Positions 24,641-56,280 of a stretch of DNA of 64,000 nt are shown here, piece by piece; the stretch's first letter is position 1, and each line of letters starts with the position of its first letter. The notes under the pieces were generated by a model. That model searched no databases. It worked only from the letters and a program-made list of their open reading frames with translations, and was not told the origin of the DNA. The position numbers and the translations under genes are program-made. Source of the stretch: Octopus vulgaris (lineage: Eukaryota). The DNA is taken from the NCBI GenBank assembly GCA_951406725.2, contig OX597814.1, positions 65,782,001-65,846,000 on the forward strand. The letters run 5' to 3'.

Positions 24641-25231
24641 TCAAATGTGAGGATAAAATTCTTTTCGAAAAAAATATATTTTCTCGAAAAAAATTTTATC
24701 AAATGCCAGCATATTAAAAAATACCTTTAAAGGTTAAATTTATAAACAATTCATAAATGAGGGCAAAGGAAAAAAATTCTAATGCCAAATATGCCGAAAA
24801 ATTGGACATATTGTCCATTAACCAAATAATTTTTTCACAATACGCACGCTACTCGAAAAATGGTCGACAGAAATTTCTAAAAAATTCCATTATTACCATA
24901 TCGGACCGATTTCAGAGTTAGCTACTAAGAGCCCTCTCTTCGTCAGTGTACTGAGTTGTGCCCATGACTTAGTATTTGCTTCTTCTATGGGTATGAGTAA
25001 GTATCTCATTTATTTCTTTTACCACATGTATCACTGACAAAGAGAGGGCTCTTAGTAGCTAACTCTGAAATCGGTCCGATATGGTAATAATGGAATTTTT
25101 AGAAATTTCTGTCGACCTTTTTTCGAGTAACGTGCGTATTGTGAAAAAATTATTTGGTTAATGGACAATATGTCCAATTTTTCGGCATATTTGGCATTAG
25201 AATTTTTTTTCCTTTGCCCTCATTTATGAAT
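24641..25231. mobile_element. HHR-bearing foldback element in (TA)n; ~200-bp inverted arms 24749-24948 / 25032-25231
   Basis: Arms are reverse complements. HHR tatca-CTGAC(G/A)A-agag..ctct-GAAA-tcgg(t)ccga-TA-tggta at 25029-25086, mirrored around 24895-24948. Same family as 47360-47572. Confidence 0.8.
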
Positions 25232-25329
25232 ATATATATATATATATATATATATATATATATATATATATATGTGTATATATATATATATATATATATA
25301 TATATATATATGTATATATATATATATGC

Positions 25330-25515
25330 ACGCATTTTTTTTCTTTCCTTGTTTCTCTCCGTGTTTCTTTTCTGTGTATCTTTCTGTTGAAGAGCGTAGG
25401 CTCGAAGCGTAAAAGACTTGTTTTATTTATATTCCTGAGCGCCATACTAATACAATTGTTTGTTTGTATTCCACCTGCCTTCGTCTTTTGTTTATCTTCA
25501 GAAAGCTTCCCGTTA
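25330..25515 (+). mobile_element. Solo PLE terminal repeat, near-identical to 35845-36030, in (TA)n
   Basis: tctttCTGTTGAagagcgtaggctcGAAGcgTAaaaga; ORFs 25224 and 35743 share the same peptide. Confidence 0.8.
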
Positions 25516-28404
25516 TATATATATATATATATATATATATATATATATATATATATATATATATATATATATATATATATATATATATATATATATATAC
25601 ATATATATATAAATATAAATATCGATATCTATCTATATGTGTGTATAAATATATATATATATAGAGAGAGAGAGAGAGACATATACATACATACATACAT
25701 ACATACATACATACATACATACATATATATATATATATATATATATATATATATATATATATATATAATATACATACATGCATACATATATACATAAATA
25801 CGTGCCGGGAAATTGATTATATTTATACATATGTATGTGTTGCGGGTGTGGTGGGAATGTTTATATTAGTATGGGAAGGTGGGGTGAAAAAGAAACATCG
25901 CTACGCTTCTTTCCTAAAAGTTTTTTTTAAACCTATCTCTATCCGCTTGATAGTTTATTTCCTCAATACAAATGCTTTACGTCATTGACATTGATCGACT
26001 TTACTTGCTAGTGAATTTGAAACAGTAGATGTGGAATGGTGGTCAGTGTATTTAAAAGTCGCTGTGACGTTTTGATTAGTCATGTGATCAGTCATGTGCA
26101 CAGCCTCGAAGGGGCTTTCTGCAAGACAGAATGAGATTGCTTTAGCGTGCCCTCCGAGAAGATGTGGCGAGTCATATGATTTCTTCTTTGATCATTAAGT
26201 CCTGAACCGATGCAATGGCTGAATACCTAATAAACCCTAGTAATGTTATATATCATATAGTTAGCCGTTGTCCTAGACGTCCTTCTTGACATATATATGT
26301 GCAGTTGTCATACTTTAAAGTTAATAATTTTTTGGGAAGTGCTGTCAATGCCTTCCACACTTTTGTACAGACATCAAGAGAGGTTCTTGCTGTAAGGTTA
26401 ATTATGTGACTGGTAATTATCGTTAAGCTCTTCTCAACGTGATGTCGTTTCCCGGAAACCAATATCAAAGTAGAATCGAAGTCAGGAATCTGGCGAAAAG
26501 TACTGAAGTTACACAATCAACTATGAGAAAGTTTGCGTATCCAAAAGAACACTTACCACACCACAAAAAAAGTAATGAATTAAAAAACAGCATACATCTT
26601 CAACTATACTACAAACACAGAATTAACCAATCACGAGTCTGACCACATTACAAATATACCACCAATCAAAAGACTTCCAGCATCATTTAATATTATGGAA
26701 ATATTGATTGCCATCCCATTTCCATTATCTTAGTATCACCGACGACTTTAGGCGACACACAAAACATTTTCGTATGGACAAATATATTTCTTCTAATTGT
26801 ATACTCTATTCTCTTCGTTTGGAGTGTTTACGGCGAATTATCTTTGATGTAGAATAACTTTTTATAGATACATTCGTAAAGTGCACTCTTGTGGTGTGCA
26901 TACTACTTCGATAAGAAGAGTAACTGTGATAGTCAATTTGATAAAAAAATATTGATGATATCAAACAAATATTTACGTCCCAAAGGATTCCACCTTATAA
27001 TATAGTTAAAGAACTTAAATTCCACCGATTTCATATAAGTAGAAATTCTCATCCCAGAAAATTGCAACAAATTAGTGAAAGAATTTAGAAGTAAACCGAG
27101 AATACTTGTTCATGCAGATAAAACAGGAAACCGTTATCATTTAGAACCGGAAAGGTACTTCTTTTTAATTAAAAACCAAATTACAAATGATTATAAAATT
27201 ACCTTAAAAGAGAACTTCCTAAACATTAACTTAATTGTGTAAGACAAAACTGAAGAACCATAAGTTGGAGATCAAACTAAACCTTACACACCAAAAAACA
27301 CACAGAATTAATTTTAAAGACCACAAATCTAATTTTCATAATGGTTAGACTGATTAGCCCATCGAAATCAGATATTGGAAAGATTAGTAAATATATTATA
27401 GATAAACATATTCCTAAGCTTAAACAATATATTAATTTATCTTTATGGTCTAATTCCTTGGGGGATATTGTTTAGTTCATTAACATTAAGGGTAAAAACG
27501 TACTACATTGATTCAGCTGGATATTTCTAATTATTACTCATCTATCAAACCTATCCTACTAAATAAAGCATCAATTTCCGCTATGAAGAATTTTAGGTTG
27601 ATATTATATTAACGACTTGCAAAACCATAATTGAATTTAATAGAAAGTATTGTACTGATAGGCCTGATTATTATGACATTACTATGGGGTCCAGTGATTC
27701 AGCTCAACTAACTGATTTAGTCGGTATTTGTATTCTTAATCGTATGCATAACGAAATTCCTGAATGAGTTATATATAGATGACGCTCTATTTACTATACC
27801 TAGATCTAATATGGCTAACTTAGTAAGGTCCTGAAATTTAAAAAAAAATTCAAGCGTCCTGCTCTCACTATCGCTATAGAAAATGACTATACTAAGGTTA
27901 ACTTCCTTGATGTTACTCTTGATTTAAGTAATGAGTTATAACAACCTTATCATAAACTAAATAAAACTCAAATCATCCGAGAAGCATCATAAATTCTATC
28001 ACTAAAAATATATCTACTCGAATTTCGAGACTTTCGACTAATGAGGATATAGTTAAGCAAAATCAAAACTACTAACCACGCATTATTTGAATCTGGATAT
28101 AAAGATAATATTTACTATATCTAGAATCATAATAATAAAATTCCCGGAAATAATAGAATATTAGGAACTCAATAGGGAGCATAATAAAACTAAAAATTTA
28201 GATAGAAATAAATGCATTAAGCAATCTATTTTAGCGAAACTAAATAAAGAAAAAAGCTATAACGATATAAATGTGATCAACAATAAACTAAGTATTGAAG
28301 ATATTATTAACAAGTATATCAATAACTATAGATCTAAATCTCTAGATAATGAATATATGGTTGGTATAAATAATATCAACAACAACAATAATAATAATAA
28401 TAAC

Positions 28405-28781
28405 CTTTTCTACGCTAGGCACAAGACCCGAAATTTGTTGATTAGATCGACCCCAGTACGCAACTGGTACTTAACTTATCGACCCCGGAAGGATGAAGAG
28501 AAAGTCGATCTCGGTGGAATTTGAACTCAGAACGTAAAGACAGATGAAATACCTCTTTCTTTACAACCCACAAGGAGCTAAACACAAAGGGGAAAACAAG
28601 AACAGGCAAACGGATTAATTCGATTACATCGACCCCAGTGCGTAACTGGTACTTAATTTATCGACCCCGAAAGGATGAGAGGCAAAGTCGATCTCGGCGG
28701 AATTTGAATTCAGAACGTAACGGCAGACGAAATACCGCTAAGCCTTTCGCCAGGCGTGCTAGCGTTTCAACCAGCTCGCCG
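28405..28781 (-). mobile_element. SINE family B, partial tandem duplication
   Basis: Two copies of tcgaccccagt..ggtactt..gaccc..aaggatga..aaagtcga; head ggcgagctgg. Confidence 0.85.
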
Positions 28782-28899
28782 ACAACAACAACAACAACAA
28801 CAACAACAACAACAACAACAATAACAACAACAATAATAATAATAATAATAATAATAATAATAATAATAATAATAATAATAATAATAATAATAATAATAA

Positions 28900-54793: not shown

Positions 54794-54851
54794 TATGTAT
54801 GTGTATATATATATATATATATATATATATATATATATATATATATATATA

Positions 54852-55070
54852 TCTTTTATCTTTTACATATTTCAGTCATTAGACTGCGGCTGCGCTGGGG
54901 CATTGCCATAAAATTTTACTCCAATGATCCGACCCCAGTAATTAATTTAGCCTCATACTTATTCTGTCGGTCTCTCTTGTCGAATCTTTAAGTTATGGGA
55001 ATGCAATGACTGTCAGGCGGTGTGGGGCGGGGAACAAGCACATGCACAATGCTACAAACACACACACACT
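54852..55070 (-). mobile_element. Diverged SINE family A 3' half
   Basis: tttcagtcattagactgcggc..gacccca..cttattctgtcggtctc. Confidence 0.65.
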
Positions 55071-55209
55071 ATATATATATATATATATATATATATATAT
55101 ATATATATATATATATATATATATATATATGTATGTATATATATATATATGTATGATATATATATATATATATATATATATATATATATATATATATGTA
55201 TGTATATAT

Positions 55210-55325
55210 AAAGTTAATCCAAACAAGAAAACACAGAAAAAAAGAGAAAAAAAAAGAAAAAAACACAGCAACGCGGGACGTGGAACAATTAAAGTATTAT
55301 TGACGCTCAGGAAAGAAGGGAAGAT
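55210..55325 (-). mobile_element. PLE-type terminal fragment in (TA)n
   Basis: Reverse complement ttcctgagcgtcaataatac.. resembles ttcctgagcgccatactaatac at 35949. Confidence 0.5.
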
Positions 55326-55803
55326 ATATATATATATGTATATATATATATACATATACATATATATGTATATATACATATATCACTATATAAGTGTGTG
55401 TATATATATATATATATATATATATATATATATATATGTGTGTGTGTAAATTTAATTCATTAATTAATCAATTAATTAACAACACACATATTGTTTCGAA
55501 TTTGTGTGAATGTGTATAGAATAATGTATCAGCTGAATAAATTTAAAACATTGTCTAGTTTTCACGTTTTTTATTATGGTATTGTTAACATTAAAAAATA
55601 TCTCTAGCATATTTATATATTTAAAAGACATATATGATGGGAGCAACGTCAACTTCGCTCATCAACCAAATGTTACACATCAGAGCAGGTTTATTGGTAG
55701 TGTAGCAAAATAAATGACGGTGCCTAAGCATGGCAACAGTCCTTGGACAGATACTTAATAGAATATATATATATATATATATATATATATATATATATAT
55801 ATA

Positions 55804-56280
55804 GAATAAAAAATGGAGTTAACGCAGGTGTAAACAAATATTTTTACTTTCGACACATGTTTCGAAAATTCCACTGATACTATTCAAAAGAATAAATGGT
55901 ATAAACAATGCAATCTTTTCGGGAAAGTGAAAAAAAACGAAGCTCGTCAATACGACATTTTAGCAAAAAAATTTTTTTGATAAAATGTCGTATTGACGAG
56001 CTTCGTTTTTTTTCACTTTCCCGAAGAGAAGATTGCATTGTTTATACCATTTATTCTTTTGAATAGTATCAGTGGAATTTTCGAAACATGTGTCGAAAGT
56101 AAAAATATTTGTTTAAACCTGCGTTAACTCCATTTTTTATTCATATTATTCAAATATTCAACATGAATACGAAGTTTCTCCTTTATAAACAACTTTACTT
56201 GTGAGATTTTTGCTGCCCTGGTAACTATTTATTTATTTTTCCGTGTTAATTGTTAACAAGGTAAAAATACACTCATCTAT
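55804..56280. mobile_element. Spacerless ~340-bp palindrome (55804-56142, centre 55971/2) with HHR, plus 3' tail, in (TA)n
   Basis: Arms are reverse complements apart from a few differences. Confidence 0.88.
56015..56100 (+). ncRNA. Type I hammerhead ribozyme (CCGAAGA core, long helix II)
   Basis: actttc-CCGAAGA-gaagatt...aattttc-GAAA-catgtg-TC-gaaagt. The mirror copy has a 3-nt core deletion. Confidence 0.75.

Follow-up and report, generated by a model that had tools for sequence, protein, structure and literature searches.

Hammerhead-motif foldbacks in (TA)n tracts of Octopus vulgaris: probable Penelope-like insertion with priming from both target strands

How Penelope-like elements (PLEs) make inverted, tailed insertions has been called undefined (PMC8557442). 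This question is raised by five foldback loci, E1-E5, which we compared and which all lie in one window of Octopus vulgaris DNA (the whole 64,000-nt stretch of OX597814.1 analysed here). As an earlier note on this DNA had claimed, five inverted repeats exist at roughly the positions it gave, and their arm alignments are 86-99% identical. E1 (24641-25231) has a long left arm on the minus strand (24641-24951), a short right arm on the plus strand (25028-25231) and a spacer at 24952-25027. E2 (33618-33841) has a short left and a long right arm that meet without a spacer at a palindromic centre (33690/33691). E3 (36752-37461) again has its long arm on the left (36752-36958, minus) and its short arm on the right (37324-37461, plus), separated by microsatellite and AT-rich DNA (36959-37323). 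E4 (38142-41099) is built from a non-coding unit of 491 nt, arrayed in tandem with an inversion, and E5 (55804-56281), with a short left and a long right arm, is centred on a perfect palindrome (55971/55972). Over aligned columns, arm identity was 205/210 in E1, 49/57 in E2, 139/140 in E3, 99% in E4 and 170/172 in E5. E2, whose arms are 86% alike, is an old insertion. Note that three other inverted repeats (19975-20241, 61333-61445 and 59667-59971) have arms without a hammerhead and were excluded from the count of five.

By hammerhead strand, the left arm was antisense and the right arm sense in all five elements, as the earlier note had stated. A feature absent from that note is the inequality of the arms, seen in 5/5 elements. 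Each carries one 3' tail, of about 109, 70, 67, 102 and 138 nt for E1-E5 (range 66-138), located at about 24641-24749 in the left arm of E1, where it contains a 22-bp hairpin, about 33769-33841 in E2, about 36752-36817 in the left arm of E3 and about 56144-56281 in E5. The long, tailed arm is on the left in two elements and on the right in three, and every element contains the PLE-type head-to-head inverted, 5'-truncated copy. When the terminal 30-mers of the two ends were compared, they were identical at 7, 9, 3, 10 and 12 of 30 positions (E1-E5).

All ten outer ends lie at (TA)n, each 0-2 nt from a run of at least five TA/AT units, in agreement with the earlier claim; the baseline is that 0.8% of non-run positions fall within 3 nt of a run end. 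Only the five short-arm ends are free of circularity as a test, their position being set independently by where arm homology stops. Beyond each short arm comes its own (TA)n and then unrelated DNA. A target-site duplication of fixed length is unreadable within (TA)n for E1-E5.

The elements had also been described as sharing no sequence. This was borne out for nine of the ten element pairs and failed for E2 and E3, whose alignment scored above 300/300 shuffles because a tail hairpin is common to both. This TACTC-loop-GAGTAC hairpin lies at 33777-33801 (+), about 9 nt past the short 3' end of E2, and its counterpart in the E3 tail at 36790-36811 (-), about 7 nt past the E3 short end; a further counterpart at 34191-34215 (+) belongs to a decayed relative of the E2 tail.

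We then consider the hammerheads, which were called from core boxes and helices and are putative ribozymes. A first scan with too high a threshold gave one match, and later scans were relaxed. The type I descriptor, which was tuned after matches had been viewed, gave 18 matches (7 distinct motifs), where 100 block shuffles averaged 0.14 and never exceeded 1. Six of the 18 were a second match in each E4 unit, with a non-standard core and weak helix I, and were treated as chance. The claim that both arms include hammerhead sequence stands with an unbroken core for E3 and E4 (2/5), but in E1, E2 and E5 the motif is damaged. In E1, C3 is at 24946 (-) and 25034 (+), with cleavage predicted after 24899 (-) and 25081 (+); G8 is changed to A in the right arm and helix I is weak in the left. 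E2 has C3 at 33707 (+) and predicted cleavage after 33736, and its left-arm core is partly deleted, lacking the first core letters. E3, with C3 at 36879 (-) and 37402 (+), has a weak helix II. In E5, C3 is at 56021 (+) with predicted cleavage after 56094, and the left-arm core has a 3-nt deletion. With so few core lesions, each in a single arm of E1, E2 or E5, no case for selection can be made. Position 4 is C in the E2 and E5 hammerheads, and helix III of the element hammerheads is self-complementary. Isolated monomers mostly folded no more stably than shuffles (5/6 with z above -2). No hammerhead was among the Rfam matches listed for the window (150 of 414) or found in small Rfam searches of E1 and part of E4. 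The top Rfam matches for the window were microsatellite matches to miRNA models.

The window also holds one-armed copies. One of the E2 family (24398-24481, +; well-paired hammerhead, C3 24405) shares the short 3' end with the E2 left arm and abuts the microsatellite tract that also holds E1. Another, of the E1 family (47357-47571, +), is 5'-truncated, starting just past the predicted cleavage site; its long 3' end is that of the E1 left arm, and its tail hairpin persists although 18-20 nt have been deleted. These copies indicate that a foldback is one of the possible products of insertion, rather than a fixed structure of the element. Between E2 and E3 lies a 5'-truncated, frameshifted PLE fragment (34275-36028, +), whose coding part, to about 35160, comprises the post-RT region, a Cys linker and, at the C terminus, a GIY-YIG endonuclease, and whose 3' end has a minimal hammerhead (C3 35900) and runs into (TA)n. 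Three PLE pieces matched the RT and GIY-YIG protein P0084 (pairwise E 8e-21 and 8e-20; library E 4e-11). Pfam gave no match in the degenerate pieces, and a word-index protein search with them scored 0/361 candidates, but the full phmmer search did find relatives. A non-coding stump adjoining E1 (25336-25511, +), flanked by (TA)n, is 95% alike to the PLE 3' end, indicating that the coding PLE leaves pieces of mini-element size. The 3' ends recur at 24641 and 47571 (E1, long), 33618 and about 24481 (E2, short) and 36028 and 25511 (PLE), and the 5' ends vary; this test covers two independent insertions each for E1, E2 and the PLE, E3 and E5 having no second copy in the window.

Fixed 3' ends, variable 5' ends, unmatched termini and a hammerhead-bearing PLE fragment sharing the (TA)n surroundings uphold the earlier proposal of PLE-type retrotransposition over a DNA transposon. 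In endonuclease-bearing PLEs a head-to-head inverted, 5'-truncated copy is the published norm, and their insertions have a junction palindrome, a tail on a single arm, a terminal-repeat hammerhead and partial tandems, with a target bias stated as (TA)n for Naiads and microsatellite for Neptune (PMC3846280, PMC8557442). E1-E5 resemble them in head-to-head arms, one-sided tail, (TA)n target and hammerhead motifs. Unlike published PLEs, none of E1-E5 contains an RT and GIY-YIG endonuclease frame, and their tails of 66-138 nt are two to four times longer than the published 30-40 nt. Opposite-strand pairs of minimal hammerheads about 100-700 bp apart in Schistosoma mansoni were interpreted as truncated PLEs (PMC4209133); they share the layout of E1-E5 and receive, in the accessible part of that article, a one-sentence mention without analysis of ends or target.

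We consider that E1-E5 were probably written in by a Penelope-like RT/GIY-YIG protein that nicked both (TA)n strands and primed two cDNAs. By extension from in vitro work on another species (PMC11167929), the protein would bind the RNA near the tail and nick both strands of AT-rich DNA. One nick would then prime at a long start site and the other at a short site 66-138 nt upstream on the RNA; such paired start sites would account for the one-sided tail and the outward-pointing 3' ends, each seen in 5/5 elements. Both cDNAs would extend toward the RNA 5' end, terminate at differing points and meet in the middle: in E2 and E5 the joint is a perfect palindrome, in E1 and E3 it spans a spacer, and in E4 it is flush. 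Where a single cDNA survived, a one-armed copy would result, of which the window holds three. The in vitro system is Poseidon PAc of Anolis, in which both strands of AT-rich DNA are nicked and extended, the tail lies between two internal RT start sites and the main substrate is uncleaved RNA (Frangieh et al. 2024, PMC11167929). As described in the accessible part of that article, this mechanism is what the anatomy of E1-E5 calls for; the PAc start sites lie in an ORF and those proposed for E1-E5 would lie in non-coding RNA, and neither an inverted-junction model nor a non-autonomous substrate appears in that part. Given the published PLE arms, palindromes, tail, (TA)n target, opposite-strand pairs and two-site nicking, the architecture and priming from both ends are largely known. 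The earlier note's idea of priming from both target ends thus survives as the best mechanism and loses its novelty, being largely published (PMC11167929).

Which RNA was copied is a separate matter. Only E4 is shown to be non-autonomous, and E1, E2, E3 and E5 may be stumps of coding PLEs. The possibility that these four are heavily 5'-truncated 3' ends (pLTR stumps) of several coding PLE families is a serious one, falling just short of even; it is compatible with the best explanation and alters only the identity of the RNA. The 176-nt mini-element-like stump left by the window's coding PLE (25336-25511) points this way, as do the microsatellite or low-complexity DNA in the PLE 3' region, as in the E3 spacer, and the non-tandem state of all four in the window. 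Against it, their hammerheads have a long palindromic helix III and the one at 35900 a minimal one, E4 has the same anatomy and is a non-coding tandem unit, and an ORF search of the four found nothing convincing, the longest frame (E3, 117 codons) being microsatellite. By sequence comparison, none of E1-E5 resembles the one PLE 3' end present in the window.

E4 belongs to a tandem family that is retrozyme-like and non-autonomous. Its unit (491 nt, 36% GC) is repeated head-to-tail, and unit positions were numbered from the predicted cleavage site. The left arm (38142-39509, -) covers 2.8 units, from unit position 236/237 to 133, the right arm (39509-41099, +) covers 3.2 units, from 121/122 to 235-237, and the arms join flush. 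A type I hammerhead was called by descriptor in 6/6 units, two with a helix mismatch (C3 39790, 40281 and 40774 on the plus strand; 39344, 38853 and 38364 on the minus strand). The six units are about 99.5% alike and carry the same allele at 9/9 checked positions that vary among public runs, which may derive from other individuals or species; at 40263, all six have T, and C makes up at least 99.9% of summed contig depth in runs X1, X2 and X3. E4 sequence is at very high copy number in public runs, as read from summed contig depth, which is not a copy number. Tandem joints across the predicted cleavage site occurred in three DNA runs (X1-X3), and the long end followed by (TA)n was found again in 2 contigs of run X6 (place 40117). 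The short end (position 133) did not recur among the 24 loose ends listed (196 more exist), and none of the 7 E4 joints listed switched strand, these coming from short contigs with rare forms dropped. Searching metagenome and viral contigs for an exact 21-nt E4 pattern gave 0 matches. Helix II changes that look compensatory (places 40304 and 40339) were set aside because phasing is impossible in contigs.

The ends of the E4 arms are reciprocal: the left arm 5' end lies 0-2 nt from the right arm 3' end, the right arm 5' end 12-13 nt from the left arm 3' end, and the total length is six units plus 12-13 nt. Under uniform 5' ends this has a probability of about 6e-4, a post hoc figure for one locus. 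Reciprocal ends occur in 1/5 elements and were rejected as a general rule, since in the remaining four the overlap spans the short arm in full. In L1 5' inversion by twin priming, the outer end of the inverted arm meets the inner end of the direct arm at one RNA position, with a short duplication. E4 has this topology without poly(A) or L1. Its inverted arm stops at the upstream unit's first priming site, so that a multimeric or circular template is needed. We ranked two enzymes rolling together on a monomeric circle below a multimeric template because each stop at the other's start would be unexplained. E4 probably entered the genome already as a hexamer, copied from a single uncleaved multimeric RNA. 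What is new here is that its near-identical units share rare alleles and its arm ends are reciprocal, as twin priming on one such RNA would give; the array probably registers two starts of copying on a single RNA.

Self-priming, in which target-primed cDNA of a PLE-type insertion folds or jumps onto itself and is copied back toward its start (model: Arkhipova et al. 2013), seems rather unlikely. It would explain the near-identical arms and the perfect palindromic centres of E2 and E5, which fit it and twin priming equally well, and junction palindromes were so interpreted in PMC3846280; moreover, the E4 left arm (2.8 units) fits in register within the right arm (3.2 units). However, it leaves two E4 coincidences unexplained (236 is the long end plus 1; 121 is close to 133), and the two arms of E4 show no variant mirrored with an identical allele. 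The E1 spacer forms helix I with the short arm (-8.8 vs -3.2 kcal/mol), a pairing not expected if the long arm had simply snapped back; the extra 5' sequence of E1 appears to be short-arm sequence, which cannot template the tail (evidence of moderate strength). In addition, the short end recurs in the one-armed 24398-24481, as expected of a true start site.

Improbable, too, is insertion of E4 as a short or direct array followed by DNA-level expansion, homogenisation and partial inversion through unequal crossover and gene conversion. Conversion would also yield about 99.5% unit identity, and local amplification of retrozyme arrays has been proposed (Li et al. 2026, bioRxiv 10.64898/2026.07.22.740005), yet both outer ends meet (TA)n exactly, the inversion breakpoints are the two 3' ends, and the 102-nt offset agrees with the tails of the other four elements. 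That the foldbacks are assembly or library artefacts is very improbable: the E4 and E5 joins have no spacer and no listed run contig switches strand within the E4 unit, but substitutions and indels distinguish the arms (86-99% alike), the spacers of E1 and E3 are unique, and an artefact would keep mirroring the flank past the points where the short arms end. That they are DNA-transposon MITEs or foldback elements targeting TA is hardly credible, despite the TA setting of the long inverted repeats, fragments of mariner-type transposase at 32996-33484 and 18073-18399 and the reported existence of Mutator elements targeting TA microsatellites (PMC4486113), given that the termini are unmatched (3-12 of 30), which already refutes it unless many genomic copies share both ends exactly, that one-armed copies show fixed 3' and variable 5' ends, and that the hammerhead motifs run in the same direction in 5/5, with E4 a tandem family.

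With both-strand priming by a PLE protein as the preferred reading, E4 can be compared with animal non-LTR retrozymes, for which a unit range of 150-450 nt is stated (Cervera and de la Pena 2020, PMC7229834; Li et al. 2026, bioRxiv 10.64898/2026.07.22.740005). PLEs have been proposed to mobilise retrozymes, as a "strong candidate" (PMC7229834) that phylogeny supports (bioRxiv 10.64898/2026.07.22.740005). E4 is like these retrozymes in being a non-coding, low-GC tandem unit with one type I hammerhead each and high copy number; it is unlike them in its 491-nt unit, as E1, E2, E3 and E5 are in being non-tandem in the window. The words "inverted" and "microsatellite" are absent from the main text of PMC7229834, and in the text of Li et al. 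2026 (bioRxiv 10.64898/2026.07.22.740005) "inverted" occurs solely in a reference and the word "tail" is absent.

Two questions are at stake, namely which enzyme moves animal retrozymes and how inverted, tailed PLE insertions originate, and E4, whose non-coding hammerhead array bears the PLE footprint in full, joins both by anatomy. Its high copy number and short unit make it a good substrate for genome-wide junction counts and for the existing in vitro assay. Repeat pipelines would mislabel such palindromes as MITEs. Tentatively, we suggest a joint reading: E4 would preserve an event of twin priming on a single retrozyme RNA, multimeric and perhaps circular, animal retrozyme arrays would be inserted ready-made by PLEs, the pair of long and short primers would be general in PLEs, and the E2/E3 tail hairpin would be an enzyme signal. 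If so, the PLE enzyme would prime the two strands at long and short sites, each cDNA stopping at the other's start; obligate long and short primers would explain inverted, one-tailed PLE insertions generally, and the enzyme would recognise a signal of which this hairpin forms part.

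Five head-to-head inverted insertions carrying hammerhead motifs in their arms, E1-E5, were characterized by using the 64-kb window, contigs of four public runs, one protein search and the literature. These elements are real and far from chance: inverted repeats were found at 24641-25231 (E1; 205/210 aligned columns identical), 33618-33841 (E2; 49/57), 36752-37461 (E3; 139/140), 38142-41099 (E4; arms 99% identical) and 55804-56281 (E5; 170/172). As the earlier note had claimed, all five elements have an antisense left arm and a sense right arm, as judged by ribozyme strand. The claim of (TA)n flanks also held, since all 10 outer ends were within 0-2 nt of a (TA)n run, as compared with 0.8% of background positions, the non-circular part of this test being the five short-arm ends only. 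The centre was a perfect palindrome in E2 and E5 and a spacer in E1 (76 nt) and E3 (365 nt), while in E4 the arms meet flush. Note that the window has a GC content of 34% and 137 (TA/AT) runs of at least 5 units. Its other content includes a LINE-like fragment, a SINE-like repeat in many copies, which looks like an octopus SINE, and mariner-type transposase fragments (32996-33484 and 18073-18399; Pfam Transposase_1) that are unrelated to E1-E5.

Arm lengths were unequal in all five elements, a feature absent from the earlier note. The two 3' ends were located 258 and 150 nt from the cleavage site in E1, ~105 and 35 in E2, 89 and 21 in E3, 235 and 133 in E4, and 187 and 48 in E5 (short ends of E2 and E5 were counted by hand), leaving tails of ~109, ~70, ~67, ~102 and ~138 nt, respectively; two elements have the tail on their left side, the other three on their right. 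Because the arms are never equal, their terminal 30-mers match poorly (7, 9, 3, 10 and 12 of 30 positions in E1-E5, in order), and the palindromes are indeed only MITE-looking, as had been proposed. E1-E5 are not MITEs and mostly match the known footprint of Penelope-like elements (PLEs), for which PMC8557442 describes an inverted 5'-truncated copy, a tail of 30-40 bp at one end, targeting of (TA)n and the existence of non-autonomous members. Head-to-head was the commonest arrangement in PMC3846280, with palindromes at junctions, opposite-strand hammerhead pairs separated by 100-700 bp were reported in PMC4209133, and the curation features in PMC8969392 include inverted pLTRs and 3' extensions. 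Among one-armed relatives, an E1-family copy (47357-47571) has an end coinciding with the long-arm end of E1, and an E2-family copy (24398-24481) has one coinciding with the short-arm end of E2.

Each of E1-E5 contains type I hammerhead boxes together with helix I and a helix III that is self-complementary. Hammerhead sequence had been claimed for both arms throughout; the boxes occur in all five elements, but only E3 and E4 have an unbroken core in each arm, and the core lesion is confined to one arm in each of E1, E2 and E5. A type I descriptor, tuned on the E1-E5 matches themselves, gave 18 matches in the window (7 distinct motifs; 6 of the 18 are a doubtful second match within E4), as compared with a mean of 0.14 and a maximum of 1 in local shuffles (n = 100), and it detected neither arm of E2, and in E1 and E5 it missed the left arm. 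No hammerhead family was among the 150 of 414 Rfam matches listed for the window, or among the matches listed for part of E4 (6 rows) and for E1 (12 rows), and five of six isolated motifs did not fold more stably than shuffles (criterion, z below -2). In the predicted hammerheads, C at core position 4 recurs in two unrelated families (24405, 33707 and 56021), and U at core position 6 occurs in the 3' end of the PLE of the window (35900) and in its stump. In the available part of PMC13282606, a recent octopus repeat annotation, the word "ribozyme" has no occurrence.

The view that the elements share no sequence stood for nine of the ten pairs, which aligned no better than shuffles, but failed for E2-E3, which beat 300 of 300 shuffles (21 pairs in all were tested for similarity, E2-E3 among them); with the tails alone, the alignment was matched by 16 of 2000 shuffles. 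This likeness runs via a TACTC-loop-GAGTAC hairpin 7-9 nt past the short end in both elements, a pattern derived from E2 and E3 whose sole independent match is the third, at 34191-34215. This third match falls within a decayed sequence related to the E2 tail (34106-34250; score 65 vs 23 in shuffles, 0/2000), which has no clear hammerhead and lies directly upstream of a 5'-truncated and frameshifted PLE (34275-36028) located between E2 and E3. An 80-residue piece of this PLE had 916 relatives at E ≤ 0.001 in the protein search, and four longer relatives that were domain-scanned showed RVT_1 then GIY-YIG (3/4) or GIY-YIG alone (1/4); two more pieces matched one of the four, P0084, with 35% and 48% identity. 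The C-terminal endonuclease and preceding Cys linker, compared with the description in PMC8557442, point to Neptune or Nematis as the candidate clade. The 3' end of the PLE contains a minimal hammerhead and leads into (TA)n, and a 176-nt PLE stump adjoins E1. Resemblance to this 3' end was found in none of E1-E5, so this PLE is informative about machinery and target rather than about the partner. Whether E1, E2, E3 and E5 are themselves stumps of coding PLEs is a separate question from the priming mode, and we consider this nearly as probable as its opposite.

E4 is an inverted tandem array (left arm 38142-39509, minus; right arm 39509-41099, plus) of a 491-nt unit with 36% GC and no frame longer than 68 codons. 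The unit or part of it was present in 20 of 24 public sequencing runs listed (9 studies), with at least half of its words in 16. Given the numbers of contigs matching one unit in four runs (5016, 13452, 730 and 77), their identity range (<90% to >99%) and the head-to-tail joints spanning the cleavage site in runs X1, X2 and X3, E4 is, judging from these sequences, a member of a large, diverse tandem family. In at least two contigs of X6, the unit gives way to (TA)n at its long end, and no strand switch within the unit was seen among 7 joints listed from run contigs. The six units of the window have few private differences and carry the window allele at each of the 9 positions checked; for example, 40263 is T in 6/6 units, where C accounts for at least 99.9% of summed depth in three DNA runs (92% in X6), and these runs may stem from other individuals or species. 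Because these alleles are common to all six, the units would have one source unit as ancestor, or would have been homogenised later. Animal non-LTR retrozymes were defined in PMC7229834 with PLEs as likely partners, a partnership backed by the phylogeny of Li et al. 2026 (bioRxiv 10.64898/2026.07.22.740005), where local array amplification is favoured; circular templates were put forward for tandem PLE insertion in PMC4209133.

In E4, the right arm starts at unit position 121/122 and reaches 235-237 three units further on; the left arm starts at 236/237 and stops at 133. The arms are thus reciprocal, the start of each being the end of the other, and total six units plus 12-13 nt. The chance of such ends is ~6e-4 given uniform 5' ends, as computed after the fact for one locus; reciprocal ends were looked for in E1, E2, E3 and E5 and were absent in all four. 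In L1 twin priming, inverted and direct arms meet in the same topology, whereas in E4 the inverted arm additionally halts at the long start site of an upstream unit. The boldest reading of E4, namely twin priming with a single multimeric retrozyme RNA as template, is tentative and, in our view, rather unlikely. Separately, the only right-arm substitution outside homopolymer runs (39768) and 39366 in the in-register left-arm unit are both at unit position 379; their bases differ and would oppose each other in a hairpin. Chance, hairpin-intermediate damage or polishing error may account for this coincidence.

For the foldback architecture as a whole, two primings are the probable origin. In PMC11167929, purified PLE protein, a predicted dimer that prefers uncleaved RNA, nicks and extends AT-rich DNA on both strands, and two internal RNA start sites bound the genomic tail. 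We infer from these results that priming would begin at the long site from one nick and at the short site from its counterpart, and that two cDNAs with element 3' ends outward would meet head-to-head. A long end was paired with a short end in all five foldbacks (1 in 32 if strands chose freely with equal odds), suggesting that both primers were located on one RNA. Self-priming or snap-back of the inverted arm (PMC3846280) fits the palindromic centres seen in E2 and E5. It is nevertheless improbable, as it accounts for neither of the two E4 end coincidences and, in its long-arm form, does not predict the helix I pairing of the E1 spacer with the short arm (-8.8 vs -3.2 kcal/mol). Our literature search, which covered the main texts of mainly non-subscription papers, yielded no account of twin priming or of reciprocal ends for insertions of PLEs or retrozymes. 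The novel features are the families as such, the length of their tails, the hairpin common to the E2 and E3 tails, and the reciprocal ends in E4.

In the region 59490-59971, a sixth hammerhead motif (minus; core position C3 at 59588) leads into a microsatellite and has an old 300-nt palindrome upstream (59667-59971, 75%); the region may be the remnant of a foldback in which the right arm ends short of the ribozyme. A patchwork at 58534-58845 consists of three reverse-copied nearby pieces (59531-59330, 59065-59014 and 60412-60332; 93-100% alike), is joined to the end of a truncated LINE-like fragment and terminates in (TA)n. Its first piece starts ~2 nt past the predicted cleavage site of the 59588-59533 hammerhead, and the patchwork would be either a local templated insertion or a copy of cleaved RNA. 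Older inverted repeats at 19975-20241 (84%) and 61333-61445 (77%), each with an AT microsatellite on the right side and devoid of a hammerhead, may represent ribozyme-free PLE-type foldbacks or else MITEs. Three different hammerhead insertions, namely the E2-family copy, E1 and the PLE stump, lie in series at 24398-25511 with (TA)n-rich tracts between them, and the series SINE, E3, SINE, E4 at 36356-41099 is likewise separated by such tracts. The (TA)n-rich tracts of both regions act as landing sites used repeatedly.
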